Source: Limnothrix sp. BL-A-16 (GTDB taxonomy: Bacteria > Cyanobacteriota > Cyanobacteriia > CACIAM-69d). Taken from it: a stretch of 64,000 nucleotides of DNA. A program made the translations under genes and the position numbers. Each line of letters begins with the position of its first letter. Positions within the stretch are counted from its first letter, which is position 1. The notes beneath the pieces were generated by a model. It saw only the letters and a program-made list of their open reading frames with translations. It ran no database searches and was not told the DNA's origin. The stretch lies in the NCBI GenBank assembly GCA_041937175.2, contig CP166615.1:2816001-2880000 (forward strand), written 5' to 3'. This document shows, piece after piece, positions 1,453 to 61,712 of this stretch.

Positions 1453-1840
1453 ACCATCACATTGATTTTAGGGTGACATCCTTCCTGTCTTGAAGCAACG
1501 GGGCGAGGGCCAATCAATGCAATGACTGAAGAGATGGTTAAGCGTTGAACCCTTACTTGATCCTTACTCAATCCTTGATGAATCGTTGGGTCATCTCGGG
1601 AGCACCCTAACGATCAACTCAATAACCCATTCAGGATTGATTCAGGACTGATCCCACAGCCCCTTGGGGAACTGGTCAAGACCCGATCGAGCTGGAATTG
1701 GCCAAGGGGTTTCTGGGTGGGCTAAGCAACGGTTGTCGATCGGGCATTCGCATCCTTCAATACCCTTGCTGAATTCATCGCTGAATCCATTGCTGGGATG
1801 GCGATGGCATCCCGATTATGTTATTTTATTCATAGTCGGT

Positions 1841-3250
1841 ATGAGTTTAGATAAAGCATCCATGACCAGCGCCGCTTCTGCACCCAACACCGTTGAAAAT
1901 GTCGTGATCATCGGTTCCGGCCCCGCCGGTTACACGGCTGCCATCTATGCCGCTCGTGCCAACTTGAAACCTTTTATGTTTGCGGGCTTCCAAGCGGGCG
2001 GCCTGCCCGGTGGTCAACTGATGACCACCACGGAAGTGGAAAATTTCCCCGGTTTTCCGGAAGGCATCACGGGCCCGCAATTGATGGATCGGATGCGCGC
2101 CCAGGCGGAACGGTGGGGCACGGAGGTAGTAACGGAAGATGTCACCTTTGTGGACTTGAGCCAGCGGCCCTTTGTGGTGCGATCGACCGATCGGGAATTG
2201 CGGGCCCACAGCGTCATCATCGCCACCGGAGCCACGGCCAAGCGGTTGGGGCTGCCCAGCGAAACGGAATTTTGGAACCGGGGCATTTCCGCCTGCGCCA
2301 TTTGTGATGGAGCCATGCCCATGTTCCAAAACGCCGAGCTGGTGGTGATTGGTGGGGGCGACTCGGCCGCCGAAGAGGCGATGTACCTGACGAAATATGG
2401 CTCGCGGGTGCATTTGTTGGTGCGATCGGACAAAATGCGGGCCAGCAAAGCCATGCAAGACCGGGTGTTGGCCAATGCCAAGATCACAGTTCATTGGCAC
2501 ACCACCGCGATCGATGTGGTGGGGGACGAAACGGGCATGACTGGCCTACGGGTCCAGCACCAGCAAACCGGCGAAGAATCGACGATCGCCGCCCGTGGTT
2601 TGTTCTACGCGATCGGGCACAAACCCAACACCGATCTGTTTGTGGGGCAGCTTGACCTAGACGAGGTGGGCTATATCAAAACCCGTCCCCACAGTGTGGA
2701 AACCAGCGTGGAAGGGGTGTTTGCGGCCGGCGATGTGCAGGATCATGAATATCGACAAGCGATCACGGCGGCCGGAACCGGTTGCGCGGCGGCCCTGTTG
2801 GCGGAACGGTGGCTTTCGGCTCAGGGCTTGGCCCAGGAAGTGAAGCGCGACAGCACCGAGCCAACGGCGGCCTCCGTGACCGAAGACAAGCCGATCGTGG
2901 CGGATACGGAAGAAACCTTCAATCCACAAGCCACACGCCACTTTGGCGGCTACGCGGTTCGCAAGCTTTACCACGAGACCGATCGCCCGTTGGTGGTGAA
3001 GTTCGTTGCCCCCGATTGCGGCCCCTGCCACATCCTGAAACCCATGCTGGATAAGGTGGTGGATGAATTTGAGGGGCAAATCCACTTTGTGGAGGTGGAT
3101 GTGAAGGATGAGCCGCAAATTGCCGAAGGGGCGGGGGTAACCGGAACGCCAACGGTGATGATTTTCCACAACAAGGCCAAGGCAGTGGAGTTTCGCGGCG
3201 TGAAGCAAAAGAGTGAGTATCGCCAGGCGATCGCCCAACTCCTGAGCTAA
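1841..3250 (+). CDS. ntrC: NADPH-dependent thioredoxin reductase C (TrxB fused to a C-terminal thioredoxin domain)
   Basis: [31 protein letters not shown], then a Trx domain with CGPC. Start ATG 1841 or 1862. Confidence 0.93.
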
Positions 3251-3323
3251 GTTGCCATCCAGACTGATCGGGGGTTGGGGCGTGCTGCCAAATGGATCGT
3301 TCGCCAATCTCCTGGGGGACAAG

Positions 3324-47520: not shown

Positions 47521-47834
47521 TGCCGCCAACTCCCAAGGCTACGGCTCCCATTCTAGAAACCGAAAGTGGCGATCGACCAAGCTTTTTTATCATTAGTGAG
47601 AAAGGGCTGCGAAATTATCGCCCCACGGCAGTCGTTAATTGTTCGATCGGGAAAAGCGATCGGGGCGATCGGTTGACCAAACAGCAAGATCAGGAGATCG
47701 TCATAGCCCTAAAAATATTGAGATTGGCATCTCACAGAGAGAAATTGCTAAGCTAGATACCTTGATTGCTTGACGATTCAATCAATTAGGAACCCAAAAA
47801 CGCCTAATTACGGCTAAATAACGGATCAACTCAT

Positions 47835-50800
47835 ATGCCCGCACTGAAAACCTCTTCAACGAATTCTTCTCCTGAAATTCCTGGATATGGAATCATTGAG
47901 CAGATTCATCATGGGTCACGCACATCCGTTTATCGCGCCGTGCAGCACAGCAATCAGCAAATCGTTATCTTAAAAGTCCTACATTCAAACTATCCCACCT
48001 TTGGTGAATTAATTCAGTTTCAAAATCAATACACAATCACTCAAAATCTTGACGTTTCAGGAATTGTGAAACCCCTGGGACTAAAGCCCATTGGCAATAG
48101 CTATACCCTGGTCATGGAAGACTGTGGTAGCATCTCTCTTCAGCAATATTGTCGGCAACAACAACTCAAGCTGATTGATGTGCTAACAATTGCTCTGAAA
48201 ATGACTACCATTCTTCAAGAGCTACACCAACAACGAGTTATTCATAAAGATGTTAAACCTGCCAATATTCTTATTCATCCCCAATCGAAAGAAATCAAAT
48301 TAATTGACTTTAGCATCGCCTCTTTACTACCCAAAGAGACACAAGAAATCCAGAATCCAAACGTCCTCGAAGGAACCCTTGCTTATCTGGCACCAGAGCA
48401 AACTGGGCGGATGAATCGAGGCATCGACTACCGCGCCGACTTCTACGCCTTGGGCGTGACGTTGTATCAACTCCTCAGTGGCCAACTACCATTTGAATCC
48501 GATGATCCAATGGAGTTGGTGCATTGCCACATCGCTAAAGTACCTGTGCCCGTTGAACAAATCAATCCAGCGATTCCAAAGACCGTAGGGGCGATTGTTG
48601 CTAAGTTAATGGCCAAAAATGCGGAAGATCGCTATCAAAGTGCCCTAGGACTAAAACATGATTTGCAACAATGTTTAACCCAATGGCAGGAAACAGGTGC
48701 TGTCACTGATTTTGAATTGGGTCAGCGGGATTTGAGCGATCGCTTTCTGATTCCCGAAAAACTCTATGGCCGCGAAACCGAGGTTCAAGCATTGCTGAAT
48801 GCCTTCGATCGCGTTTCTCAGGGCACCTCAGAACTCATGCTGGTGGCTGGATTTTCTGGAATTGGTAAAACTGCTGTAGTGAACGAAGTTCACAAGCCAA
48901 TTACCCAGCAAAAGGGCTATTTCATTAAGGGAAAATTTGACCAATTCAATCGTAATATTCCCCTGCTGGCATTTGTACAAGCCTTACGCGACTTGATGGG
49001 GCAGCTTTTATCAGAATCCGATGCGCAATTAGCCCAATGGAAGATCAAGATTCTCGAAGCAGTCGGTAACAATGGTCAAGTTCTGATTGATTTAATTCCT
49101 GAGCTGGAACAGATCATTGGATTGCAACCCCCTGCCCCCGAGCTTTCTGGCGAAGCCGCCCAAAATCGCTTTAACCGTCTATTTCAAAACTTCATTCGAG
49201 TTTTTGCTAAGCCCGAGCATCCCCTTGTCATTTTTATCGATGACCTGCAATGGGCTGACTCCACTTCTTTGAGTGTGATGCAAAACTTGTTGACGGAAGC
49301 TTGCTCCCATGCTCAGTGTCTTTTGGTTTTGGGAGCCTATCGAGATAATGAAGTGCTTCCTGGTCATCCCTTTTTAATCACTGTTAAGGCCTTAGAAAGT
49401 GCCCATATTCCCCTGGAAACCCTCATTCTCGGCCCCTTGAGTGAGGAGAGCCTAAACCAGTTAATTGCTGATACTTTCCGAGCCACCAGCAGCAAAGTAC
49501 AGCCCTTAACCCATCTGGTTATGCAAAAGACCCAGGGCAATCCATTCTTTGCGACCCAATTCCTCAAAGCGCTACACCAAGATCATCTCATTACCTTCGA
49601 TCGGGAAGCGGGTCACTGGCAATGCGACTTAGTGCAGGTACAAGATGCGGCCCTAACCGATGACGTGGTGGAGTTCATGGCCTTGCAATTGCAGAAATTA
49701 CCCATAGCTACACAAGAGCAGCTTAAATTTGCAGCCTGTGTCGGGGCCAGATTTGACCTCAAAACCTTGGCAATTGTGTCAGAACAGAGCGAAATTCAAG
49801 CGGCTTCAGCCCTATGGTCAGCGCTGCAAGAGGGGTTGATTTTGCCGGAGGGCAAAATTTATAAGTTCTACGCGGATCGCGATTCATCCCAGGTCGATCA
49901 ATCTTGGGGTGAAGAGATTTCTGGGCAAATTCAGTACCGCTTTTTTCATGATCGGGTGCAACAGGCCGCCTACTCACTGATTCCTGAAGATCAAAAACAG
50001 GTCACTCACCTGAAGATGGGTCAGTTACTCCAAAGCCGTTTGTCGGCAGCCGAGCGCGAGGAAAAACTGTTTGATATTGTCGGCCATTTGAACCTAGGGC
50101 ATCGATTATTAAGTCAGCAACATGAGCGGGAGTCTTTGATTCGCCTCAATCTTGCCGCAATCGAAAAGGCTAAAAAGGCAACCGCTTACGGTGTGGCTCA
50201 GGATCTCGTAACGATCGGGCTGGAATTACTTTCAGAAGAACCGTGGCAAAACCAGTATGAGTTGAGCTTAAAGCTCCATCAAATGGCTGCTGATGTGGCC
50301 TGTTTAAAGACCGATTTTGAGGAAGCAATCACCCAAGTTCAACAGGTTTTAGATCAGGCCCAGACGGTCTTGGATAAAGTGCCCGTTTACATGGTGAAAA
50401 TCAGGGTTTTGACGGCTCAGGATCGGTTAGCAGAGACGCTCGCCGTTGCGGCCCAAGCCATCACTCAATTAGGGGTCGAGTTTCCCTCAGAGATCACATC
50501 AAACATCAGCGCCCAAGCTGTGCAAAGGGCAGAGATCGAGTTAGAAGGGAAAGTGATTGAGAATTTGATCAACTTGCCCGTCATGGATGACCCAACCATC
50601 ATTGCTGCCATGGAATTGTTGGGAATGATCATGCCAGCGGTATTTCTTGCCAACCCCACATTGCTGCCCTTTGTTTGCGCCAAAATTGTGAGTCTGTCGC
50701 TCCAGTTTGGCAATGCGCCTGTTTCAAGTGTTGGCTATGCCACCTACGGCTTGGTTTTAGCCACGGGATTGGGTCAGGTCGATCGGGGCTATCGCCTGGG

Positions 50801-53258
50801 GAAAATGGCCTTAGCTTTAATCGATCGGCTCAATACAAAAGCATATAAGTGCCTGGCCATTCTTTTCTTTTCTGCCTGTGTCCAGCATCAGAAAGAGTCA
50901 ATGACTGCCATGGCTGATCTGCTCAAGCAGGGATATTTAGCCGGAGTGGAAGCGGGTGATTTTTTGTATGTAGGCTATTGTCTAGCCCACTATTTTTACG
51001 CTCATTTCTATGCGGGGAAAGAACTAACTGCCCTCCAAACAGAAGTTAATCAATTTCGTTCTGCTATTGCTTCCCTCAAGCAAGATAGTGCCCTGGCATA
51101 CTTGCAAATGACGAATGAATTCTTTGATCGCTTGCTCGTAACACACCACCAACCCACTCTCTTGATTGGCGATAGTTACGACGAGACGAAGGTTTTTCCA
51201 CGGCATCTTCAAAATCAGCAATTGACAGATCTTGGAATTGCTTACGCCTACAAGCTGATCTTGGCCTACTTGTTTGGTGACCATAGCCTTGCTTTTGAAT
51301 ACCTCAATGAAGTTAAGAAATATTTAGATAACATCGTCGGGATGCTGCATATTCCCGCCATTCATTTCTATGGGGGATTAACGTATCTCGCGGTGGCTGC
51401 CGGTAAGCCTGAAGATGAGCAATTAGAACTACTTGCTTTGGCGGAACAGCACTACGCTAGCCTATCTGCTTGGGCAGACAATGCTCCAATGAATTACCAG
51501 CATAAGCTGGATCTCCTGGCAGCAGAAAAACATCGGTTTTTGGGCAATGTCTTGGAGGCTATTAACAGCTATGAGCAGGCCATTGCGGGTGCTAAAGCCA
51601 ATGGCTTCATGCAAGAAGAAGCTTTAGCCAACGAATTGGCAGCTAAATTCTATCTCGATTGGGGTAAGGAAAAAATCGCCGCCAGTTATATGCAGGAAGC
51701 CTACTATGGCTATGCTCGCTGGGGGGCAAAGGCCAAAGTTATTGATTTAGAGCAGCGCTACGCCCAATTACTGCAACCGATTCTGCAAGCGGCTAATCAA
51801 CCCTTCGCCCTTTTAGAAACCCTAGCGACGATCGCAAATCCTGCTGATTCACCACGCGCCACTCCGCATGGAAGTTCTAGCGGCAGCATTAACCAAATGC
51901 TTGATTTTACTGCCCTGCTACAGGTCTCTCAAAATCTGGTCAGCACGATCGCCCTGGATGAATTGCTACAAACCCTAGCTCAGACGATGTTGAAAAACTC
52001 GGGAGCCGATCGATGTGCCTTAATCCTTTGGGAGGACGATCGATGGCAAGTGAGAGTGATGGCCAATCCAGAGCAGGTGACACTTCAATCAACACCCTTA
52101 GACGATAATCCCAACATTCCGATCAGGCTCATTCAATATGTGAAGAACTTGGCGATGACGGTTGTGATCAATGACCTTGATACCGATTTGCCTGTAATTG
52201 GTGATTATCTAAACTGCTATCAGCCCAAGAGTGCCTTGTGTTTGCCGATTCTCAATCAGGGTAATCTGCGGGCTATTTTATACCTGGAAAATCGATCAAC
52301 TAGTGGTGTATTTACCAATGATCGCATCACTATTCTGAAGTTTCTTTGCAGCCAAGCCGCCATTTCCCTGGAAAATGCTCGGCTTTATCAACAAGCTCAA
52401 ACCTATGCTCAACAGTTGGAACAGTCCCAATTGCAAATGGTGCAGAGCGAGAAAATGGCTTCTCTCGGAAACCTAGTGGCGGGGGTGGCCCATGAAGTTA
52501 ACAACCCGATCGGCTTCCTCAATGGCAGCATTAACAATGGCAAGGATCACGTCAAAGACCTACTAGAACATTTGTCCCTGTATCAGCAGCATTATCCCAA
52601 TCCCGCTGTTCCAATTCAGGATCATGCTGAAGATATCGACTTGGAATATATTTGCGAAGATCTACCTCAGTTGCTCAAGTCAATGCAAGGGGCAACCGAT
52701 CGAATTAAATCGATTAGCACCAGTCTCCGCATTTTCTCTCGCGCCGATACGGAATATAAGGTGAGTGCAAATTTGCATGAGGGGATTGACAGCACGGTGC
52801 TGATTTTGAAATACCGACTCAAGGCAAATCCGTTTCGTCCGGCGATCGAGATCAAGACGCATTATGGACACATCCCGGAAGTGGAGTGTTTTCCCGGACA
52901 GATTAACCAGGTGTTTATGAATATCCTGGCCAATGCGATCGATGTGTTTGATGAAATGGTGCAAGGTCGATCGTTTAAGGAATTGGAAGCGCATCCCCAA
53001 ACTATTACGATCAGCACAACGGTTGTTGATGATCAAGTGCGGATTTCCATTCGGGATAATGGCAAGGGCATCAGCGAGGAGGTGCAAGCCAAAATTTTTG
53101 ACCATTTGTTCACCACGAAAGGTGTGGGTAAAGGTACGGGGTTAGGGCTAACGATCGCCCGCCAAATTGTCGAGAAAAAACATGGCGGCAGTTTGACAGT
53201 TCAGTCAGAATTGGGACAAGGAACTGAATTTTTGATTCAACTGCCGATTAAAGGCTAG
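47835..53258 (+). CDS. multidomain Ser/Thr kinase - AAA ATPase - helical repeats - GAF - histidine kinase
   Basis: IHKDVKPANI, DFS, YLAPEQTGRMNR; GFSGIGKT; IDDLQWAD; GNPFF; HDRVQQAAY; GAF (LYLEN, QAAISLENARLY); AHEVNNP; GKGTGLGL. Confidence 0.93.
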   Translation: MPALKTSSTNSSPEIPGYGIIEQIHHGSRTSVYRAVQHSNQQIVILKVLHSNYPTFGELIQFQNQYTITQNLDVSGIVKPLGLKPIGNSYTLVMEDCGSISLQQYCRQQQLKLIDVLTIALKMTTILQELHQQRVIHKDVKPANILIHPQSKEIKLIDFSIASLLPKETQEIQNPNVLEGTLAYLAPEQTGRMNRGIDYRADFYALGVTLYQLLSGQLPFESDDPMELVHCHIAKVPVPVEQINPAIPKTVGAIVAKLMAKNAEDRYQSALGLKHDLQQCLTQWQETGAVTDFELGQRDLSDRFLIPEKLYGRETEVQALLNAFDRVSQGTSELMLVAGFSGIGKTAVVNEVHKPITQQKGYFIKGKFDQFNRNIPLLAFVQALRDLMGQLLSESDAQLAQWKIKILEAVGNNGQVLIDLIPELEQIIGLQPPAPELSGEAAQNRFNRLFQNFIRVFAKPEHPLVIFIDDLQWADSTSLSVMQNLLTEACSHAQCLLVLGAYRDNEVLPGHPFLITVKALESAHIPLETLILGPLSEESLNQLIADTFRATSSKVQPLTHLVMQKTQGNPFFATQFLKALHQDHLITFDREAGHWQCDLVQVQDAALTDDVVEFMALQLQKLPIATQEQLKFAACVGARFDLKTLAIVSEQSEIQAASALWSALQEGLILPEGKIYKFYADRDSSQVDQSWGEEISGQIQYRFFHDRVQQAAYSLIPEDQKQVTHLKMGQLLQSRLSAAEREEKLFDIVGHLNLGHRLLSQQHERESLIRLNLAAIEKAKKATAYGVAQDLVTIGLELLSEEPWQNQYELSLKLHQMAADVACLKTDFEEAITQVQQVLDQAQTVLDKVPVYMVKIRVLTAQDRLAETLAVAAQAITQLGVEFPSEITSNISAQAVQRAEIELEGKVIENLINLPVMDDPTIIAAMELLGMIMPAVFLANPTLLPFVCAKIVSLSLQFGNAPVSSVGYATYGLVLATGLGQVDRGYRLGKMALALIDRLNTKAYKCLAILFFSACVQHQKESMTAMADLLKQGYLAGVEAGDFLYVGYCLAHYFYAHFYAGKELTALQTEVNQFRSAIASLKQDSALAYLQMTNEFFDRLLVTHHQPTLLIGDSYDETKVFPRHLQNQQLTDLGIAYAYKLILAYLFGDHSLAFEYLNEVKKYLDNIVGMLHIPAIHFYGGLTYLAVAAGKPEDEQLELLALAEQHYASLSAWADNAPMNYQHKLDLLAAEKHRFLGNVLEAINSYEQAIAGAKANGFMQEEALANELAAKFYLDWGKEKIAASYMQEAYYGYARWGAKAKVIDLEQRYAQLLQPILQAANQPFALLETLATIANPADSPRATPHGSSSGSINQMLDFTALLQVSQNLVSTIALDELLQTLAQTMLKNSGADRCALILWEDDRWQVRVMANPEQVTLQSTPLDDNPNIPIRLIQYVKNLAMTVVINDLDTDLPVIGDYLNCYQPKSALCLPILNQGNLRAILYLENRSTSGVFTNDRITILKFLCSQAAISLENARLYQQAQTYAQQLEQSQLQMVQSEKMASLGNLVAGVAHEVNNPIGFLNGSINNGKDHVKDLLEHLSLYQQHYPNPAVPIQDHAEDIDLEYICEDLPQLLKSMQGATDRIKSISTSLRIFSRADTEYKVSANLHEGIDSTVLILKYRLKANPFRPAIEIKTHYGHIPEVECFPGQINQVFMNILANAIDVFDEMVQGRSFKELEAHPQTITISTTVVDDQVRISIRDNGKGISEEVQAKIFDHLFTTKGVGKGTGLGLTIARQIVEKKHGGSLTVQSELGQGTEFLIQLPIKG

Positions 53259-53259
53259 A

Positions 53260-53502
53260 TCAGGCTGCGAAACATTGCTCAACGGCAATCATTCGATCGG
53301 GAAAGGCGATCGGGGCGATCGTTTTGCCAGGTTGCAGGATCAGCTGATCGCCATAACCGTCTGCACTAGGCGATCGATAAATTTCCAAATGACGTTGCTC
53401 CAAGTCCACTAACCAATAGTCGGCGATTGCCTCGCGGGCATAGAGTGCGCCTTTGACCTGGCGATCGTAGCGAAACGTCTTGTTTGGTACTTCGATCAAC
53501 AA
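53260..53502 (-). pseudogene. Uma2 (DUF820) family endonuclease, 5'-truncated fragment
   Basis: LIEVPNKTFRYDRQVKGALYAREAIADYWLVDL matches the C-terminal half of Uma2 proteins; the N-terminal half is absent and sequence turns AT-rich at about 53501. Confidence 0.75.
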
Positions 53503-53521
53503 ATTTTATCGTTCCCACATT
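53501..53521 (+). repeat. 21-bp direct repeat, left copy
   Basis: AAATTTTATCGTTCCCACATT, 19/21 identical to 54791-54811. Confidence 0.75.
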
Positions 53522-53588
53522 CAACATCAGAATGATGGAAAGTACTATCATTCATGATAATGTAAACAATCAATAATTATCCACGACC

Positions 53589-54716
53589 ATGTTTCAGTTC
53601 GGTATTGAGCATGAGGTCGCGTTGATTAATCCCGAAGGTCAACTGGCGGATTTCTCGCGAGCAAAATTTTCTGAACTAGCTCAAATTATTGAACGCCTGC
53701 CCTCATATGAAAATGATAGTAATCAGCTTCATATTGGAGATGCTGGAATCCGACAGAAGCGATGGTATCTTGAAGGAATGGAGAGATTTTCCAATACAGG
53801 AAAATTGATCGACTTTGTTCCAAAGGGAATCGAAATTAGAACAACAATCCATTCTGACATTCCAAGTGTAATTTCTGAATTAAAAACAAGCTTTCATTTA
53901 TTGCGTAAAGTATCCTTGGAGTTGGGTTTTTCTCCAGTTCTGGTGACATTTAATCCGAATTTGACTATTTTTGATCCCGAGCCTCCTTTTAATGAATATG
54001 AAACAAAATGGCTAGAAGCATTTCCTGAAGAACAAACAGATCATATTGCAATGCTCTCATATGGGCCAGATCTGAACCTGTCGTTAATAGGAATGTCGCC
54101 TGAGGAAATTATTGATACTGGTCAAAAACTGATTTACTACAGTCCTTATATTATCCCCTTTAGCTATAGCTCTCCTTTTTTTAGCGGTTCTCTATGGGAT
54201 GGTTTGTCAATTCGGACATTTATACGAACGGGATTAAGGTCAACGGTTAGGGTTTTTCTAGAGAAGCCTGAACAACAGATTTCTAGTCAGCCAATTTTGA
54301 CAAAGGTAGCGCGTTTGCCAGCGGAAGTGGGTCGCATTGAATTTAAGGCGTTTGATAGTTGTGATGACTTTGCGATATACGCGAGTTTATTAGCCCTGTT
54401 AAAGGGGATTGTGCTGGATAAGTCGTTACTGGGCCGATCGATCCTGCCTGATGTGGCGCTACACCAAACTTCTGCGCGATTTGGATTTGACCATGCGGTG
54501 ATTTTTGACAATGCCAATCAGGTATTGCAAGCGGCTCAATCTGCGTTGAATGACAATGCGGATCCGGATTCGGAGCTTTTGACACCACTGTTCACAAGCC
54601 TGGAGCAGCGAAAAACACGATCACACGAGCTGATTGAATCATTTCATCGGCTCGGCTCGATCGAGAAAGTCCTACAAGATACTTACCAATTGCCGGGGCT
54701 GGACTTCATGGCTTAG
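53589..54716 (+). CDS. glutamate--cysteine ligase (GCS2)-like carboxylate-amine ligase
   Basis: N-terminal FGIEHEV, GIEIRT, SSPF, GRIEFKAFD, resembling the GxExE / E / SSPF / ExR-D pattern of the GCS2/YbdK family. Confidence 0.7.
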   Translation: MFQFGIEHEVALINPEGQLADFSRAKFSELAQIIERLPSYENDSNQLHIGDAGIRQKRWYLEGMERFSNTGKLIDFVPKGIEIRTTIHSDIPSVISELKTSFHLLRKVSLELGFSPVLVTFNPNLTIFDPEPPFNEYETKWLEAFPEEQTDHIAMLSYGPDLNLSLIGMSPEEIIDTGQKLIYYSPYIIPFSYSSPFFSGSLWDGLSIRTFIRTGLRSTVRVFLEKPEQQISSQPILTKVARLPAEVGRIEFKAFDSCDDFAIYASLLALLKGIVLDKSLLGRSILPDVALHQTSARFGFDHAVIFDNANQVLQAAQSALNDNADPDSELLTPLFTSLEQRKTRSHELIESFHRLGSIEKVLQDTYQLPGLDFMA

Positions 54717-54790
54717 GAATGTGTAGCGACTGTCGCTTGCTTGGAGAACCGGAGCCTAGGGATGCCTGTGATGCAATCCTTTTTAAGGAT

Positions 54791-54811
54791 AAATTTTATT
54801 GTTCCCACGTT
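54791..54811 (+). repeat. 21-bp direct repeat, right copy
   Basis: AAATTTTATTGTTCCCACGTT. Confidence 0.75.
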
Positions 54812-54813
54812 TA

Positions 54814-54926
54814 TTGTTCCTACGTTCAATGTGGGAATGGATTCCTAGATGCTCTGCGTCGTGCCCCCGCGATTTAGAAGGACGCAGAGCTTCAAAAAAA
54901 CATTCCCATGATCTGCGTGGGAATGA
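54814..54926. repeat. REP doublet (REPIN-like long hairpin)
   Basis: TTGTTCCTACGTTCAATGTGGGAATG ... GATGCTCTGCGTC / GACGCAGAGCTTC ... CATTCCCATGATCTGCGTGGGAATGA: two inverted short palindromes around an inner inverted repeat. Confidence 0.65.
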
Positions 54927-55069
54927 TGAGATGAATTATCCAGCTTTTGATGTGATTGATTTATGGAATTTGGGTAGTGCCGTAATTCAGTAATGATGAG
55001 CTAGTGAAAGCCTTGCAGTGTAAGCGATCAGTGACTGAAAATCATCACCTCACAGGCACTACCGGCTTG

Positions 55070-56581
55070 TTAATTACTCTCAGGCAAGTTTTCACACTGA
55101 TCATCGCGCCATTTTAGCCAAAACCTTAATATATCGACGTAACTAATAACACCACGTAGTTTCAACTTGCTATCTTTTTTGTCACAAACCAAGAAAGAAG
55201 ATGCTGGAGAGTTTCCGTAAAATGGCTTCCAGAAGCTGTCTAAAATATCGGCAACTTTATCGTCTGGCTTTGGGATACAGGGCAGATGTTCAACTTTTGT
55301 CATCATTTCACTGACACTAATTTCACCCAGTTCAGGAAACTCAGGGTGAACGTATTTTTTGATTTTAATGTCTTCTAGAAAGCCAACAACATCACTTTTT
55401 TCAATATCAGTTTCACCACTTTCTAGTACTGGAAAGGAGCGACGCTTAGTCACATCTGAAGCCATCTTGGCAAGACTTAAATCCATTGCATTATTAAGAC
55501 AATCGATTTTTGCAGATCCCATGAGAGCAACTTGATGGACTTTTAAGTCATGCAAGAAATCTTCTTGTCCTTTAATAAACTTCCTTAGAATATCAGTGTA
55601 GGAGACAAAACCCTTTAGCTGTTTATTTTTATCGAGCACAAGCACACCACTAACATATGTCAATCGTCCTGCGCCAATTCTTTGTTTTTCACACAATATA
55701 CCAATAGCCTCCTCGATCATTGATTCTGGGCTGAGATAAACCAACGTACCTGTTCCAAGATGAGGGAAGACACTAGAAATTTTCTCCATGCCTTTACTCA
55801 GTAAGATACGGTTAAGCTTGGTTCGATCAAGATTGATTAGTGAATTTTGGAGCTGATCTAGATCGTCATTACTGGGAGGTAGCTGATCAGCAATGTCGCG
55901 ACGACTTGCAATTCCTAAACATTCATCACCCTCAGGTGCAAGGATTGGAATGTGACGAACGCCTTTAACCATCATTCTGTAGTAGAGATCACTGAAATTC
56001 TGATTGCTGCGGACAGTGACAAGATCCTTGGCAGAAGTCATCAGATCTTTGATTGTATCCTTGGCGCTTGTACAGACCATATCCACTGACTCCTTGAGGA
56101 AACTAGTAATTGTGATGAGACTTTCTTCACTGAAAATGGATATGTCTATCATATTAACGGACACATCTGCTCTTGCCAACTCAATTGACTGAACAAGGGC
56201 ATTTAAAACTTCATCACTATTTCGCTCGACATCATAAATCAGAAGAAGCGAGCTCATTTTTGAAAAAGATAGTGCCTTTAAAATTTCCTCATCAAAGGAC
56301 TTATCTAGAGAAAGGCAGCCATAATCATTTGGTAAGAAAGATACATATGCTTTGGGTTGAGTTAAAAATTCAGTATTTAAAAAAACAGATTTGCTGGTAA
56401 GCAAAACTTGTTGTTCTAGGTCACAGAAAGATTTTTCAATAATCTTTGCCCAAAAACTTTCATTTTCTCCATAACTGATGCATACGTCTATTGGAGAAGA
56501 TTGTATATTTAAACTCAAGTCGGAATCTAAGCTTGAAAGTTCTGATGCTGAGTTGGTCAACTTCTTGAAGATTTCAAACAT
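55070..56581 (-). CDS. N-terminal TIR-like domain fused to four CBS domains
   Basis: DVCISYGENESFWAKII ... DEEILKALSFS ... NSDEVLNAL (TIR-like); CBS motifs RHIPI..LGIASRRDI, GVLVLD..KGFVSYTDIL, RSFPVL..VGFLEDIKI, SFLVCD..RGVISYVDIL. ATG 56581 has AGGA upstream. Confidence 0.75.
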   Translation of the reverse strand: MFEIFKKLTNSASELSSLDSDLSLNIQSSPIDVCISYGENESFWAKIIEKSFCDLEQQVLLTSKSVFLNTEFLTQPKAYVSFLPNDYGCLSLDKSFDEEILKALSFSKMSSLLLIYDVERNSDEVLNALVQSIELARADVSVNMIDISIFSEESLITITSFLKESVDMVCTSAKDTIKDLMTSAKDLVTVRSNQNFSDLYYRMMVKGVRHIPILAPEGDECLGIASRRDIADQLPPSNDDLDQLQNSLINLDRTKLNRILLSKGMEKISSVFPHLGTGTLVYLSPESMIEEAIGILCEKQRIGAGRLTYVSGVLVLDKNKQLKGFVSYTDILRKFIKGQEDFLHDLKVHQVALMGSAKIDCLNNAMDLSLAKMASDVTKRRSFPVLESGETDIEKSDVVGFLEDIKIKKYVHPEFPELGEISVSEMMTKVEHLPCIPKPDDKVADILDSFWKPFYGNSPASSFLVCDKKDSKLKLRGVISYVDILRFWLKWRDDQCENLPESN

Positions 56582-56586
56582 AAATA

Positions 56587-57687
56587 TCAATCCTGTCCTT
56601 GAATTTCATAAATCTCTCGAAGGCAATCCGAAGTAAACTTGTATGTGAACTTCTCAAAATCTTGCTTGAGCTGTGTAGGGAGAGCATTTGAAAAACACTC
56701 ATTTTGCGTCTCAAGTCCCAGGAGCATTAAAACGAAATGCTCAGGGGTAAGACGATCACTGTAATCATACTCTTCTTTGCAAAAAAACTTAAGCATTCGA
56801 GCTTTCATTTCACACTTTACAAATAATTTGCGAAATTCATGCTCTTCAATGTATGGAGAGTCTGGGGAGATTTTCTTGACTTTCCGGATAATTTCCTCAG
56901 TCTTTGACTCATCAATTTTAAACTGAAGTCTGTGCTTAATCGATTTCAAAAAACTTCGCAATATTTCATAAGTTGATTGCTCGCCGTCATTCGATCTCTC
57001 TGGCTTTTTGAGAACATCTGATTGGACACTTTCGTAGAATTTGCCTAAGTCTTCTAGTGATCGTGAAGCCAGAATTGTTTTCGCAATATCCACGTTTTTT
57101 GAAATCGAATCTTTCAAAAAGCCAAAAATATACTCAGCCGGAATTCCTGATGCACCCTCTGACTGTTTACGATCATAGGTTTCATTAACGATTCCGCAAA
57201 CCTTGCCGGTCTTTGGATTCCAAAGTGGGCTACCGCTCCAGCCAGGCTTTATGGGTATATCAGTATTGAGCGATAGCCTCCTAGTACCATCGTCACGCTT
57301 GGTCTCTCCCGTAAATTTAAAGTTTGTTGGACGTTGTTCTTCTTCAAACCCTTCTGGCCATCCCCATCCTGTTAGATCATCATTCTTTGCAATAGATGTA
57401 GAAAGATATATGGAAGGATGTGAACCAATGTCAGTTATACCTAACAATGCCACGTCTAATTCATTGTCTATGTCGTAGAGAATTGCACTTTTTTTATCTT
57501 TCTCGAATGAAACCTGAATATCATTACATCCAATGAAATCACTGTCGTCCTGAGCATCCGAGTCAACTACTACGTGAGCGCAAGTCAACATAAGAGTCGG
57601 GGCAATGAAAAAAGCAACTCCGCGCTTTGGTGAGTCAACTCTTACGATGCAGCTATCGACATCTTCCTGTGTTAAATGCTTTCCCAT
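56587..57687 (-). CDS. trypsin-like serine protease (Trypsin_2) with helical C-terminal extension
   Basis: GVAFFIAP, LTCAHVV (His), LDVALL (Asp), PGWSGSPLW (Ser), VCGIV; catalytic triad intact. Confidence 0.88.
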   Translation of the reverse strand: MGKHLTQEDVDSCIVRVDSPKRGVAFFIAPTLMLTCAHVVVDSDAQDDSDFIGCNDIQVSFEKDKKSAILYDIDNELDVALLGITDIGSHPSIYLSTSIAKNDDLTGWGWPEGFEEEQRPTNFKFTGETKRDDGTRRLSLNTDIPIKPGWSGSPLWNPKTGKVCGIVNETYDRKQSEGASGIPAEYIFGFLKDSISKNVDIAKTILASRSLEDLGKFYESVQSDVLKKPERSNDGEQSTYEILRSFLKSIKHRLQFKIDESKTEEIIRKVKKISPDSPYIEEHEFRKLFVKCEMKARMLKFFCKEEYDYSDRLTPEHFVLMLLGLETQNECFSNALPTQLKQDFEKFTYKFTSDCLREIYEIQGQD

Positions 57688-57700
57688 AGTTTTGATAGGC

Positions 57701-58021
57701 TCAATCTTGCTTTGGCTTGGCTGATTCCCATTCCAAGTTTACTTTTATATTTGCTTTGGCCGCACCCTTTACTAAGACAGCAGTCAACTTGCCGGATTCA
57801 ACTGCCAGCTCAAAGCCAAACTCCAGAGAGGCTTTAGATGCTTGTGCCTTACGAACCACATCTCGCAGGGCCACTAGCGTTTGTTCAATCGTGGCAGAAG
57901 CGTCTTTGAAATCAAAAGTAGAAGATGAAACTTTTTGCCGGCCACGCTTAAAAGTTGTTTCAACTTTCAAAGTGGAGTCATCAGGAAGACGAACTGTAAT
58001 GATTTCTGTATCTTCGCTCAT
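57701..58021 (-). CDS. trypsin co-occurring domain protein (Trypco1 / CU044_2847-like)
   Basis: 106 aa; C-terminal LEFGFELAVESGKLTAVLVKGAAKANIKVNLEW pattern; lies 13 nt upstream of a trypsin gene. Confidence 0.82.
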   Translation of the reverse strand: MSEDTEIITVRLPDDSTLKVETTFKRGRQKVSSSTFDFKDASATIEQTLVALRDVVRKAQASKASLEFGFELAVESGKLTAVLVKGAAKANIKVNLEWESAKPKQD

Positions 58022-58179
58022 TGAATTGAACAGCTTACTTCAGTTCAAGCTAGCACTTGAACAAGTGAACGTCAATAAGTCTTGAACTTAACCATTTAAG
58101 GCTGGTGACTGTGATCTGAATCACAAAGAATCTGAGTTTGTGATTAAATTTGCACTGCAACGTAGCTGGATTTATTTCG

Positions 58180-58767
58180 ATGCGATCGCTCTGTTTACAA
58201 CTGCTGAATCATGACCATCTCGATCAATTGGTAGCGATCGACCAGCTCGCCCTGGGCGGCCTGTGGAGCGCCGATACCTATGCCCGCGAACTCGACAGCC
58301 CCAATAGTGATTTGCTCGGGGCGATCGATCCGCAAGGACAACTGATCGGATTTGGTTGTGCTTGGGCCATTGTTGACGAGTGCCACATCACGGCGATCGC
58401 CCTGCGACCGGAATTTCAGCGTCAGGGCTTGGGCCAAACCCTGTTGTGGGGCCTGTTGAGCCTGGCGCGGCAACGGGAAATGAAGCGGGCCACCCTGGAA
58501 GTGCGGCCGAGCAACCAAGCGGCCCTGTCGCTCTACGAAAAATTTGGCTTCCAAGAGGCCGGCCGTCGCAAACGCTACTACGCCGATGGCGAAGATGCGG
58601 CGATCCTGTGGTTAGGCAAGTTGGATTGGCCCCAGTTTGCTCAACAGCTCGATCGCACCGCTGCTGACCTGAGCGATCGACTGGCGCAACATCAATGGCA
58701 GTGGTGGGGAGAGATTGTGCCCCCAGCCGCCGGGGTCGGCAGCCCCCCAAGCCATGCGCTAGATTAA
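58180..58767 (+). CDS. rimI: ribosomal-protein-alanine N-acetyltransferase
   Basis: DECHITAIA, QRQGLG, ATLEVRPSNQAALSLYEKFGF, GRRKRYY.DGEDA; upstream of clpC. Confidence 0.9.
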   Translation: MRSLCLQLLNHDHLDQLVAIDQLALGGLWSADTYARELDSPNSDLLGAIDPQGQLIGFGCAWAIVDECHITAIALRPEFQRQGLGQTLLWGLLSLARQREMKRATLEVRPSNQAALSLYEKFGFQEAGRRKRYYADGEDAAILWLGKLDWPQFAQQLDRTAADLSDRLAQHQWQWWGEIVPPAAGVGSPPSHALD

Positions 58768-59222: not shown

Positions 59223-61712
59223 ATGTTTGAACGCTTCACTGAGAAAGCCATTAAGGTGATCATGCTCGCCCAAGAAGAGGCCCGCCGCCTGGGTCATAAC
59301 TTCGTGGGCACCGAGCAAATCCTTCTCGGACTCATTGGCGAAGGCACTGGTGTAGCCGCCAAAGTCCTGAAATCCATGGGTGTCAACCTCAAGGACGCTC
59401 GGATTGAGGTCGAAAAAATTATCGGTCGCGGCTCCGGTTTCGTGGCTGTGGAAATTCCCTTCACGCCCCGTGCCAAGCGGGTTCTGGAACTGTCGCTCGA
59501 AGAGGCCCGCCAACTGGGCCACAACTACATCGGCACAGAGCACCTGCTGCTGGGCCTGATCCGCGAAGGAGAGGGGGTCGCGGCCCGAGTGCTGGAAAAT
59601 CTGGGCGTTGACCTGTCGAAGGTGCGCACCCAAGTGATTCGGATGTTGGGCGAAACGGCGGAAGTGACCGCTGGCGGCTCCCAAGGCCGCACCAAGACCC
59701 CGACGCTGGATGAGTTTGGGGCCAACCTGACCCAACAGGCCGCTGAAGGCAAGTTGGATCCGGTGGTGGGTCGCCAGAAGGAAATTGAGCGGGTGATTCA
59801 GATTTTGGGTCGCCGCACCAAAAACAACCCGGTGTTGATCGGGGAGCCGGGCGTGGGTAAAACCGCGATCGCCGAAGGATTGGCCCAACGGATTGCCAAT
59901 GGCGATGTGCCCGACATCCTGGAAGACAAACGGGTCGTGACGCTGGATATCGGTCTGTTGGTGGCCGGTACCAAGTATCGCGGGGAGTTTGAAGAGCGCC
60001 TGAAGAAGATCATGGATGAGATTCGCCAGGCCGGTAACGTGATCCTGGTGATCGATGAAGTCCATACCCTGATTGGGGCCGGCGCGGCCGAAGGGGCGAT
60101 CGATGCCGCCAACATACTGAAGCCAGCCCTCGCACGGGGCGAATTGCAGTGCATTGGCGCAACGACCTTGGATGAATATCGCAAGCACATCGAGCGGGAT
60201 GCAGCCCTAGAGCGGCGCTTCCAGCCGGTGATGGTGGGCGAGCCGACCGTGGACGAAACGATCGAGATCCTGCGCGGCTTGCGGGAACGCTATGAGCAAC
60301 ACCACAAGCTGAAGATCTCCGATGCGGCCCTGGATGCGGCGGCTAAGCTGTCCGATCGCTATATCAGTGATCGTTACTTGCCCGACAAGGCGATCGACTT
60401 GATCGACGAAGCCGGATCGCGAGTGCGGCTGCTGAATTCCCAACTGCCCCCGGCCGCCAAGGAATTGGATAAGGAGCTGCGGGAAGTCCTCAAGCAAAAG
60501 GACGAAGCCGTGCGATCGCAGGACTTTGACAAGGCCGGCGAGCTGCGCGACAAGGAAATGGAAATCAAGCAGCAAATCCGCAACATCGCCCAAACCAAGA
60601 AGTCGGAAGAGCGCACCGACGACCCCTTGCAGCCGATCGTTGACGAGGAAGACATCGCCCACATCGTCGCCTCTTGGACGGGTGTGCCGGTGAACAAGCT
60701 CACCGAGTCCGAATCCGAAAAGCTGCTGCACATGGAAGACGTGTTGCACCAGCGGCTGATCGGCCAAGACGAAGCGGTGAAGGCCGTGTCCCGTGCCATT
60801 CGTCGGGCCCGCGTCGGTCTGAAGAACCCCAACCGCCCGATCGCCAGCTTCATCTTCTCTGGCCCCACCGGGGTTGGGAAAACCGAGCTGACCAAGGCTT
60901 TGGCGGCCTATTTCTTCGGCTCCGAAGAAGCGATGATCCGCCTCGACATGTCGGAATACATGGAGCGGCACACGGTCTCGAAGCTGATCGGTTCGCCTCC
61001 GGGCTACGTGGGCTACAACGAAGGCGGCCAACTGACGGAAGCCGTGCGTCGTCGCCCTTACACCGTGGTGCTGTTCGATGAAATCGAAAAGGCCCACCCC
61101 GATGTGTTCAACATGCTGCTGCAAATCTTGGAAGATGGTCGCTTGACCGATGCCAAGGGCCGCACGGTGGACTTCAAGAACACCCTGATCATCCTCACCT
61201 CGAACATCGGTTCTAAGGTGATCGAAAAGGGTGGCGGCGGTCTGGGCTTCGAGTTTGGCGAAGACCAAGCCGAGTCTCAGTACAACCGGATCAAGTCCTT
61301 GGTGAATGAGGAGCTGAAGAACTACTTCCGCCCCGAGTTCCTGAACCGCCTGGACGAGATCATCGTCTTCCGCCAACTGAGCAAGGACGAGGTGAAGGAA
61401 ATCGCCGAAATCCTGCTCAAGGAAGTGTTTGCTCGCTTGACCGAGCGCGGCATCACCCTGGCGGTAACCGACAAGTTCCGCGAACGCCTAATCGAAGAGG
61501 GCTTCAACCCCAGCTACGGGGCACGGCCACTGCGTCGGGCAATTATGCGCCTCCTGGAAGATGTGCTGGCGGAGGAAATCCTCTCCGGCCGGATCAAGGA
61601 TGGCGATACGGCAACGATCGACCTGGACGAAGACCGCAACGTGAAGGTGGACGTGACGGCCGGTGCGCCGCCCGCTGAAACCCGCGAGCTGGTGGGTCAA
61701 GGGGCCGAGTAA
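59223..61712 (+). CDS. clpC: ATP-dependent Clp protease ATP-binding subunit ClpC
   Basis: [43 protein letters not shown] segment, [26 protein letters not shown]. Confidence 0.97.

Follow-up and report, generated by a model that had tools for sequence, protein, structure and literature searches.

The window, that is, the whole analysed stretch of 64,000 nt from Limnothrix sp. BL-A-16, contains three tightly packed minus-strand genes, encoding a Trypco1/Pepco protein (57701-58021, 106 aa), then a trypsin-type protease (56587-57687, 366 aa) and then a four-CBS protein (55070-56590, 506 aa if translation starts at a TTG; 55070-56581, 503 aa if it starts at the ATG of position 56581). Direct reading of the junctions gives the gaps of 13 and 5 nt that a first-pass annotation of this DNA had reported between three co-oriented genes. 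There are 13 nt between the Trypco1 stop codon (TGA, ending at 57701) and the start codon of the protease gene (ATG, 57687), while 5 nt separate the protease stop codon (TGA, 56587-56589) from the ATG of the CBS gene, upstream of which an AGGA lies at a distance of 9-12 nt. If the CBS gene begins at the alternative TTG, its start overlaps with the stop codon of the protease gene. As annotated, the trio diverges from the rimI-clpC pair, with a 128-nt intergenic region (58022-58149, read from the sequence) between the Trypco1 gene and rimI (58150), and clpC next at 59223.

The trio was also described as AT-rich and free of HIP1 sites, and this holds: its GC content is 0.394, compared with 0.558 in the remaining window, and its 2952 nt contain 0 HIP1 sites where the density of sites beyond the low-GC stretch would predict 3.5 (Poisson P about 0.03). 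The low-GC, HIP1-poor stretch is, though, wider than the trio; no HIP1 site occurs from 48744 to 58181, a region that also includes an 1807-aa kinase gene, a Uma2 fragment and a 375-aa orphan gene. The kinase (47835-53258, plus strand) bears an AAA_16 domain and lies 1.8 kb past the end of the operon. It is absent from all other loci that carry the cassette, and the annotation's statement that an NTPase is missing is correct for the operon itself.

A 7+7 palindrome (GTTCAAG-6 nt-CTTGAAC, 58043-58062) lies in the Trypco1-rimI intergenic region, overlapped by a weak promoter-like TTGACG-17-TAGCTT on the minus strand. A consensus scan returned no promoter and no T-tract terminator assignable to the operon, and because it reported no promoter in 58022-58149, we only infer that the TTGACG-17-TAGCTT may drive the cassette. 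A long hairpin (54831-54910; RNA fold -43.6 kcal/mol, z -5.3, 0/200 shuffles equally stable), present as a single copy in the genome, lies where the CBS gene and the 375-aa orphan gene converge, in the interval between their ends; it is likely to be the transcription stop of the cassette.

The Trypco1-protease pair and its conservation

The Trypco1/Pepco protein matches PF19493 in Pfam with 56.7 bits (cut-off 24.6) and NF041216 in NCBIfam with 59 bits (cut-off 23), and is presumed, by analogy, to be a latent pore-forming effector. It is very similar to the Trypco1 of a STAND-linked protease in genome G041. Its C-terminus carries a conserved NLEW followed by a short charged tail, ESAKPKQD; in the alignment, the tail after LEW measures 5-8 residues.

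The protease combines a serine protease domain of the trypsin-like type (aa 20-185, 57133-57630, minus strand; Trypsin_2, PF13365, 51.2 bits, cut-off 27.6) with an orphan C-terminal domain (aa 186-366, 56590-57132, minus strand). The catalytic triad that had been noted as intact consists of His38, Asp78 and Ser151 (GWSGSP), in order, and is invariant in 17/17 family members. Whereas the catalytic domain alone is common to STAND-, TIR-, TPR- and CHASE2-fused cyanobacterial proteases, the C-domain has no relative in Pfam, PADLOC or the Atlas. A word-based search returned its own fragment as the sole match, and its hhalign scores against a TIR profile (11.5) and against the N-terminal domain of the CBS protein (11.9) are both at null level. 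The full-length protease family comprises 16 clusters, beyond which scores fall sharply to domain-only matches. We presume that the C-domain serves in docking or regulation.

The PADLOC model PDLC03855 is matched by 12/17 protease family members, suggesting LmuA of Lamassu. This was rejected because the genome search matched only profile positions 6-165, i.e. the trypsin part, and the model also rings in 10/14 control genomes; LmuA would, moreover, call for a specific region outside the protease domain and for LmuB/LmuC partners, and no SMC-like gene lies near the cassette. Likewise, the G041 protease was dropped as a C-domain carrier, its weak second match (profile positions 195-286) belonging to a trypsin-STAND protein.

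An HMM of the C-domain matches seven distinct loci: the window, metagenome contig L011, three Microcoleus loci (L006/L010, L008 and L009) and metagenome contigs L014 and L015. At 7/7 of these, the Trypco1 gene is directly upstream of the protease gene and a gene for the four-CBS (CBS4) module (344-429 bits) directly downstream. The metagenome loci were searched with a 7-sequence alignment; a metagenome scan with a single protein returned no relative. A single 32.2-kb contig of Trichocoleus sp. FACHB-262 carries the protease and the CBS protein under consecutive accessions. The number of independent lineages is small (that of the window, Microcoleus and Trichocoleus), and the five loci of Microcoleus type are kin. 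Between lineages, gene order and tight spacing (2-28 nt) are kept at 25-35% protein identity, with 33% for Trypco1, 25% for the protease and 34% for the CBS protein between the window and Microcoleus. The 22 other protease loci have the catalytic domain only, in one example fused to a STAND P-loop; Trypco1 is directly upstream in 20/22, and no C-domain or CBS4 match occurs within their flanks of about 1.5 kb, a span that a CBS gene farther away would escape.

The cassette is patchily distributed and changes its surroundings. In two samples, each of 400 further cyanobacterial genomes, the full-length protease occurred in G055 only, so that the cassette is found in 2/401 genomes per sample; a plasmid search gave one domain-level protease match and 0 matches for the CBS protein. 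All named hosts are cyanobacteria. In L011, the cassette lies between DUF362 and valyl-tRNA synthetase genes, away from rimI, and in genomes of the same genus as the window, homology is lost exactly at rimI, one of them having a NucS-like gene there. In every host, the GC content of the cassette is 9-17 points below that of its flanks and HIP1 is absent. The Microcoleus copies neighbour HicAB, PemK, PIN, Uma2 and HEPN genes; the neighbours vary by locus and include no conserved NTPase, and none of the three proteins contains a P-loop family. The trio is a conserved, mobile and compositionally foreign cassette, and a chance neighbourhood is very improbable. Since the trio recurs as a cassette at other loci, the objection raised by the first-pass annotation, that the CBS gene is never found with the pair elsewhere, fails.

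The CBS4 module and its relatives

The annotation had called the third protein a TIR-like protein with four CBS units. The CBS part of this description stands, whereas the TIR part is unsettled and is treated below. The protein matches PF00571 in Pfam with 62.8 bits (cut-off 24) in two stretches; the count of four CBS domains in tandem, arranged as two Bateman modules (aa 172-497, 55091-56068, minus strand), comes from a structure model (pLDDT 83.6) and its fold matches (Foldseek E 4e-16). The closest of these is MJ1225 (3lfz_A, Z 24.1, residues 172-489), followed by AMP-bound SSO3205 (Z 22.9) and by AMPK gamma and Snf4 (4zhx_E and 3t4n_C, Z 20); the archaeal ribosome-bound Sri and Dri proteins are also among the matches. 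Like AMPK gamma/Snf4, MJ1225 and SSO3205, the modelled protein thus carries four tandem CBS domains in one chain (Z 20-24), and the entry titles of the solved AMPK gamma, Snf4 and archaeal four-CBS relatives name AMP, ADP or ATP. Unlike these proteins, to which its identity is only 13-20%, it has a protease as its presumed partner instead of a kinase and no beta-subunit-like adaptor. S/T-x-x-D motifs are kept at D229 (invariant), D330 and D483, and basic pairs occur at R209-H210 and R380-R381; we take these to correspond to the ligand residues of AMPK. CBS domains elsewhere also act as plain dimerisation or regulatory modules. Given the AMPK-gamma-like four-CBS part, a nucleotide-sensor role is the natural reading, and the module is presumed from its model to be an AMPK-gamma-like disc that senses adenine nucleotides.

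A word-based search with the whole CBS protein found only itself and one relative at 70% identity. The CBS4 module, however, occurs in other contexts. With E-values of 1e-30 to 1e-54, it is found fused to STAND and TPR (P0007), to CHAT and TRADD-like_N (P0015 and P0021) and to a LexA/S24 repressor (P0020), and more distant relatives (P0030 and P0031) are fused to TIR_2. At a further locus (L012), a gene for a true TIR_2 protein is followed by a gene with the N-domain and CBS4, and at no fewer than seven loci, at least, CBS4 is the last gene of adenylate kinase-KAP NTPase operons. Tentatively, and with rather more doubt than confidence, we suggest that the four-CBS module represents an unrecognised, AMPK-gamma-like family of bacterial immune or death sensors. 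Such sensors would read adenylate status or an adenylate-derived alarm produced by adenylate kinase or TIR enzymes linked to them, and would be plugged in cis or trans into at least five effector types; the cassette in the window would be the simplest, three-gene example. The effector types in this family reading are the Pepco pore via trypsin, a CHAT caspase-like protein with TRADD-N, TIR, STAND and LexA-type autoproteases.

A candidate sensor in trans for a putative protease-activated pore

Searches of PADLOC, NCBIfam and the literature found no system composed of Trypco1, trypsin and four CBS domains, in agreement with the annotation, which knew of none. The effector half of the cassette is nevertheless a known module. 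As in Pepco modules, a small Trypco1-family gene lies just 5′ of a triad-intact, trypsin-like protease gene, and according to the available text of a 2025 preprint, the protease of the homologous Streptomyces subrutilus Pepco-Avs4 system cleaves Trypco1/Pepco, thereby activating the pore (bioRxiv 10.1101/2025.11.14.688446). This homologous pair supports the earlier suggestion that the protease cleaves or activates Trypco1. By analogy with the system in which it was shown, the Pepco pore of the cassette would be activated by cleavage, with C-terminal trimming leading to a beta-barrel oligomer and a toxic pore. The tail removed from Streptomyces Pepco is roughly 2 kDa in that text, and the tail in the cassette is much shorter. 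Furthermore, the Pepco modules described there have the protease fused to a sensor (STAND ATPase, FGE, transmembrane STAND or peptidoglycan-binding domains), unlike the cassette with its orphan 180-aa C-domain on the protease and its separate four-CBS partner. The term 'CBS' does not occur in the text of the preprint, whose supplements might list further architectures.

Other known systems resemble the cassette in part. As far as their description in Kaur et al. (2020, PMC7159879) extends, NTP-dependent conflict systems (vWA-MoxR/VMAP and iSTAND ternary systems) share with it the effector pair, the cyanobacterial habitat and the logic of regulated death, but the cassette is without MoxR, vWA, STAND or another NTPase. 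The main text of that paper has 0 occurrences of 'CBS', and two supplement files contain neither 'CBS' nor 'Trypco1', although architectures may be tabulated elsewhere. DS-11, a single CBS-HEPN defence protein for which phage assays and a point mutant in CBS provide validation in the available text of the DefensePredictor study (Science 2026, PMC13092281), likewise has a CBS module, a proposed binder of adenine derivatives, in control of a death effector. It is a validated precedent for CBS-regulated defence. DS-11 is, however, one protein with a HEPN RNase, whereas the cassette has a separate four-CBS protein and a protease-pore pair; the DS-11 model NF053863 in NCBIfam scores 20.8 bits (cut-off 260), and no HEPN domain is present.

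Beyond the observed gene content, conservation, foreign composition and folds, we infer nucleotide binding, a physical contact of the CBS protein with the protease, the direction of gating and an antiviral role. In the account that we favour, and hold to be somewhat more than an even bet, the CBS protein takes the place of the NTPase sensor that is usually fused to the protease. It would respond in trans to an adenine nucleotide and control the protease, and the protease in turn would trim Trypco1, making it a membrane pore. The cassette would be a horizontally acquired, three-gene abortive-infection or programmed-death unit. Its Trypco1/Pepco protein would be a latent effector that assembles as a beta-barrel, and the trypsin-type protease would cut a short C-terminal tail off it to yield a membrane-permeabilising pore. 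Where most such modules have the protease fused to a sensor (STAND NTPase, TPR, FGE and others), the third gene would provide it in trans. The CBS protein would bind an adenine nucleotide, reading the ATP/ADP/AMP balance or a related signaling nucleotide, and would hold or free the protease via the private C-terminal domain of the latter. Phage infection or energy collapse would then shift the nucleotide signal and switch on the protease, leading to cell death before the phage matures. This account gives the N-terminal domain of the CBS protein no role.

The same proteins could serve a non-antiviral purpose: in cyanobacterial populations they might form a module for suicide under starvation or energy stress, or for regulated proteolysis, in which the CBS protein reads the energy charge in the way of AMPK gamma and commits exhausted cells to lysis. 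The fold of the CBS protein is nearest to energy-state sensors (AMPK gamma, MJ1225, Sri and Dri), related CBS4 operons are linked to adenylate kinase, and the hosts that could be named are all cyanobacterial, which fits this idea. We still regard it as unlikely: a patchy, foreign cassette amid toxin-antitoxin, Uma2 and HEPN genes follows the pattern of mobile defence, unlike that of core physiology, and its sister modules are demonstrated antiviral effectors in the available text of bioRxiv 10.1101/2025.11.14.688446.

A further alternative turns on the N-terminal domain of the CBS protein (aa 30-168, 56078-56494, minus strand), which has a flavodoxin fold. Its AF2 model has five beta-alpha units with a pLDDT of about 80-90; an earlier model from four sequences (pLDDT 46) was excluded from the fold search. 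The modelled fold matches CheY receivers (Z 11.2) and the TIR domain 4c6t_A (Z 11.1, 130 residues aligned) equally well, and the best Atlas feature match is a TIR_2 cluster (0.89). Against a TIR profile, hhalign gives a score of 23.8 at a probability of 7%, with a shuffled maximum of 15.9 and 0/60 shuffles reaching 23.8. The alignment is in register across the hallmark strands, and in this weak alignment (probability 7%) an acidic residue occupies the position of the TIR catalytic Glu in 10/11 sequences (Glu in 9). TIR family models in Pfam gave no match at E <= 0.1, a PDB profile search nothing below E 0.4, and hhalign of the full family alignment against one TIR protein nothing. Taken from its model, the domain is possibly a divergent TIR.

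If so, the CBS protein could be a second protease-controlled effector, whose TIR-like domain is an NAD-consuming enzyme silenced by the CBS disc and freed by proteolysis or nucleotide binding, while the protease senses the trigger via its own C-domain. Apart from the TIR-compatible fold and alignment, it is in keeping with this that a true TIR_2 takes the place of the N-domain in the distant relatives and that linked proteases unleash several effector classes, according to the preprint's available text (bioRxiv 10.1101/2025.11.14.688446). What makes it improbable is that the Microcoleus cassettes keep Trypco1, the protease and CBS4 in a version without the N-domain, which is therefore dispensable for the conserved core. 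The Pfam result, the low hhalign probability and the equal CheY match also speak against it, as does the fact that in STAND and CHAT proteins elsewhere, CBS4 occupies the sensor end. A likeness to Thoeris, with an ADP-ribose-derived signal, produced by TIR, acting on a nucleotide-binding module to release an effector, would likewise apply only if the N-domain were a working TIR; unlike Thoeris, the cassette has no ThsA-type SLOG or Macro sensor, and its putative TIR is missing in Microcoleus.

Finally, that the CBS gene is a passenger, functionally unconnected to the protease-Trypco1 pair and next to it by descent or chance, draws on the small number of lineages available and is very improbable, since order and spacing persist at this level of divergence and at different chromosomal sites, and the C-domain occurs only where CBS4 follows, with CBS4 next to 0/20 Trypco1-linked proteases that lack it (flanks of about 1.5 kb).

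Protease-activated death effectors are among the commonest outputs of bacterial immunity, and to our knowledge the trigger in all studied cases is a fused, protein-recognising sensor. The cassette suggests a different input, namely an adenine-nucleotide sensor with the architecture of AMPK gamma that acts on the protease in trans. The combination of a pore protein, its activating protease and a protein resembling AMP/ATP sensors is likely to be undescribed so far and to represent a new trigger of self-destruction in infection or stress. With only about 3 kb and three genes, the cassette can be tested directly in a laboratory host. If confirmed, this would mean that the Pepco pathway can also be triggered by metabolism or by a second messenger, give the orphan protease domain its first partner and function, and delineate a family of CBS4 sensors found repeatedly with STAND, caspase-like, TIR and KAP NTPase partners. 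Should the tentative reading of that family as immune or death sensors be true, the cassette would be a bacterial counterpart of energy-sensor-controlled cell death.

The cassette and the predicted role of its CBS protein

The cassette consists of genes for Trypco1 (57701-58021; 106 aa; Pfam, 56.7 bits), a trypsin-type protease (56587-57687; 366 aa; Pfam Trypsin_2, 51.2 bits) and a CBS protein (55070-56581; Pfam CBS, 62.8 bits). All three are found as minus-strand ORFs where the first-pass annotation had placed three co-oriented genes, and the gaps of 13 and 5 nt that it described are correct, the shorter one if the ATG at 56581 is taken as the start of the CBS gene (an alternative TTG start at 56590 overlaps the protease stop). 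NCBIfam adds a match of Trypco1 to family CU044_2847 and gives only sub-threshold matches for the CBS protein. The catalytic triad, described earlier as intact, is formed by His38, Asp78 and Ser151, which are invariant in 17/17 aligned family members.

A recent preprint, in which Trypco1/2 proteins are named Pepco, reports that these proteins form stable 9-10-mer beta-barrels, that the trypsin domain of an Avs4 cuts a ~2-kDa C-terminal tail of Pepco after a conserved Ile, and that exactly truncated Pepco kills E. coli (bioRxiv 10.1101/2025.11.14.688446). By analogy, the output half of the cassette would be the cleavage of Pepco by the protease into a toxic form.

The CBS protein was modelled with AlphaFold2 from a 17-sequence alignment (mean pLDDT 83.6, pTM 0.68). 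In this model, residues 172-497 fold into four CBS units (the CBS4 module). The structures that fit this module best all belong to adenylate-binding proteins with four CBS domains. The top one is MJ1225, whose entry calls it an archaeal homologue of gamma-AMPK (Foldseek E 4e-16; VIA Z 24.1, rmsd 3.6 over 260 aligned residues); the others are SSO3205 with bound AMP (Z 22.9), AMPK gamma and its yeast counterpart Snf4 (Z 20), and Sri and Dri, which are ribosome-bound proteins of archaea (Z 19-22). The Asp of the S/T-x-x-D motif in CBS domains binds ribose, and such motifs are conserved in CBS1, CBS2 and CBS4 (D229, which is invariant, D330 and D483). On balance, we predict that the four-CBS protein senses an adenine nucleotide in trans and would gate the protease through the latter's private C-terminal domain (C-domain, aa 186-366). 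The cassette might instead be an energy-stress suicide module that is not antiviral, which we consider unlikely; a module with adenylate-binder folds could serve such a role too. PADLOC assigns no system name to the trio: its matches to the protease are domain-level ones to protease-bearing defence proteins, and neither Trypco1 nor the CBS protein has a match.

Residues 30-168 of the same model form five beta-alpha units (the N-domain), which the first-pass annotation had called TIR-like. Here, CheY-type receivers and a plant TIR domain fit the fold equally well (Z 11.2 and Z 11.1, the latter over 130 aligned residues), and the best Atlas feature match is a TIR_2 cluster, whose score of 0.89 is too low to be more than a lead. 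A profile of 11 N-domains scores 23.8 against a profile of 24 TIR domains (P 0.005, probability 7%), with an alignment in register over CISY / FxSY, the third strand and a conserved Glu; 60 column shuffles all score <= 15.9, the reversed profile 9.4 and, as a negative comparison, the protease C-domain 11.5. From the tie, the Atlas lead and the profile scores, the N-domain is best called a predicted flavodoxin fold and possibly a divergent TIR. It would also be dispensable for the conserved core, because Microcoleus cassettes occur without it. That the CBS protein is a second, TIR-type effector has the TIR fold match and the profile score on its side and the CheY tie and the 7% probability against it, and seems to us quite improbable.

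Conserved linkage and rarity of the trio

The order of the three genes recurs outside the window. On a contig of the Microcoleus genome G055, a 368-aa protease, which aligns with that of the window over its whole length (25% identity, E 1e-18), lies ahead of the CBS gene, and a 111-aa Trypco1 (33% identity) lies ahead of the protease; the window's gene order is thus kept, with gaps of 28 nt. A genome-collection scan found the three genes in two further Microcoleus species, and a metagenome scan found them on a 657-kb contig (L011; CBS protein 69% identical) and on two Microcoleus-type contigs (L014 and L015). A single 32.2-kb contig of Trichocoleus sp. FACHB-262 encodes a protease and a CBS protein with an N-domain, and the two accessions follow one another (MBD2124569.1 and MBD2124570.1).

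All collected loci were searched with locally built HMMs, one each for Trypco1, the C-domain of the protease, the N-domain and CBS4. The C-domain occurs in 7 distinct loci, with Trypco1 directly upstream and CBS4 directly downstream in 7/7; this gene context covers those loci and the one accession pair, compared with 16 protease clusters carrying the C-domain (P0068-P0083) and the CBS4 clusters P0004-P0021. Another 22 cyanobacterial protease loci match in the catalytic domain only: 20 have Trypco1 upstream, and none shows a C-domain or CBS4 match within the ~1.5 kb of flank scanned. Hence, the protease C-domain and the four-CBS gene travel together, and it is very improbable that the CBS gene is a mere passenger. 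The two appear, in effect, to replace the fused sensors of sister proteases, as in G041, where a Trypco1 very like that of the window adjoins a trypsin-STAND protein. The only other Trypco1 match of the window's own genome (47 bits; locus L002, G000:C1:228693-231977, ORF 1471-1926, minus strand) is divergent to a large ORF (1935-3284, plus strand) that, by eye, holds a caspase-type peptidase and then a P-loop NTPase, and thus looks like the usual NTPase-linked context.

Copies of the CBS protein are rare: among 5.8 billion proteins, a word-based search returned only the query and one 70% relative, and an exhaustive HMMER search of 1.84 billion representatives gave 65 matches at E <= 1e-3, 18 of them at E <= 1e-30. 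Among 60 related cyanobacterial genomes, a relative was found only in G055, which belongs to another family (34% identity, from residue 172). A profile search of a large protein database with the protease found 16 full-length clusters (657-315 bits, >= 92% coverage), below which scores drop abruptly to 164 bits at 49% coverage; the weaker matches are fused instead to TIR_2, STAND, TPR or CHASE2 domains. Two sets of other cyanobacterial genomes, 400 in each, yielded the full-length protease in G055 only. The trypsin part of one PADLOC protease model has 11 separate matches in this 8.4-Mb genome, which indicates a large set of putatively paralogous conflict-type proteases.

Composition, surroundings and mobility

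The trio is indeed AT-rich and free of the host octamer HIP1, with a GC content of 0.394 versus 0.558 in the rest of the window and no octamers, while the whole window has 66 (1.9 expected by chance). The low-GC, HIP1-poor stretch extends beyond the trio, with no HIP1 site between 48744 and 58181, and also holds a 1807-aa Ser/Thr kinase-AAA_16-GAF-histidine kinase gene, a Uma2 fragment and a 375-aa orphan. The 1807-aa gene is flanked by a 72-nt direct repeat (47637-47708 and 53287-53358, 79% identical), the right copy lying within the 80-aa Uma2 fragment (53260-53502), which suggests that the gene may have been inserted into, or recombined between, Uma2-type genes. The orphan (53589-54716, plus strand) is convergent with the cassette, resembles YbdK / glutamate-cysteine ligase family 2 only below threshold (E 0.01-0.04), and was not seen beside the cassette in other loci. 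Between the convergent orphan and CBS genes lies a single-copy hairpin of ~80 nt (54831-54910; -43.6 kcal/mol, z -5.3) without a T-tract, possibly a bidirectional terminator.

In every host, the cassette lacks HIP1 and its GC content is 9-17 points under that of the flanks; on L011, there are no HIP1 sites in the 2.9-kb cassette versus 39 in 12.6 kb of flanks. The L011 cassette sits between a DUF362 gene and valyl-tRNA synthetase, not beside the core gene rimI (58150), from which the window's cassette diverges. Two genomes of the same genus align with the window (89% and 95% identity) from ~58177-58179 onwards, at most 30 nt from where rimI starts. One of them (G001; L097, 11618-12601) carries, at the cassette's position upstream of rimI, a divergent gene for a 327-aa protein with a NucS_C endonuclease-like domain, so this site appears to behave as a variable hotspot for accessory genes; the contig of the other begins 413 nt before the homology. 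The Microcoleus copies neighbour HicAB, PemK, PIN, Uma2 and HEPN genes, and no cassette was found in plasmid records.

A gene of 164-206 aa is divergent from Microcoleus cassettes (L006 7635-8255, L008 4723-5292, L009 4732-5352 and L015 1352-1972, all minus strand) and is also present at L025 (3284-3778, minus strand). It has no family above threshold, its best match being a weak one to Sigma70_r4, and has no counterpart in the window. A similar N-terminal sequence is found upstream of the adenylate kinase operons described below, and the gene may encode a shared regulator.

The CBS4 module in other settings

Full-length CBS4 modules are fused to AAA_16/nSTAND1 and TPR domains in protein cluster P0007; other fusions are to CHAT and TRADD-like_N (P0015 and P0021), to a LexA DNA-binding and S24 peptidase (autoprotease) unit (P0020) and, more distantly, to TIR_2 (P0030 and P0031). 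With the trans-acting trypsin included, the module would thus be linked to three protease classes. An operon on L012 (580-3668) encodes a 165-aa protein without a family, a TIR_2 protein (266 aa) and an N-domain plus four-CBS protein (508 aa); protease and Trypco1 are absent from it.

A recurrent four-gene operon encodes an adenylate kinase (PF00406), a KAP-family P-loop NTPase resembling PADLOC PDC-S20, QatA and PifA, a CBS protein of 310-360 aa and, last, a 340-aa CBS4 protein that is related to, and shorter than, that of the window. It is present in at least seven metagenome loci (L016, 3809-7951; L017, L021, L025, L026, L027 and L031) and partial in L018, L019, L024 and L062; in most cases, it has upstream of it a small gene of divergent orientation that weakly matches Sigma70_r4. 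We found no publication on this operon in the literature. The presence of an adenylate kinase suggests adenylate chemistry. The partners of the CBS4 module are those from which bacterial conflict systems are typically built.

Defence that depends on CBS domains has been validated for one system, DS-11 (CBS-HEPN), whose authors state that CBS domains had been in no characterised defence system before it (PMC13092281); a HEPN survey from 2013 predicted ligand-regulated CBS-HEPN fusions. These two were the only relevant results of literature searches combining CBS with anti-phage, TIR, TRADD-N, Pepco, KAP, adenylate kinase, trypsin-like and conflict system. In the main texts, as distinct from the supplementary architecture tables, of Kaur 2020, Kaur 2021, the 2025 Pepco preprint and the nuclease-protease paper, the term 'CBS' does not occur; the name Trypco1 itself appears in 5 papers. 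Already known, then, are the Trypco1-protease effector pair and, by one precedent, CBS-regulated defence. What is new is that the pair has a four-CBS protein as a trans partner, that an orphan domain of the protease goes with this partner, and that the CBS4 module recurs with several types of effector.
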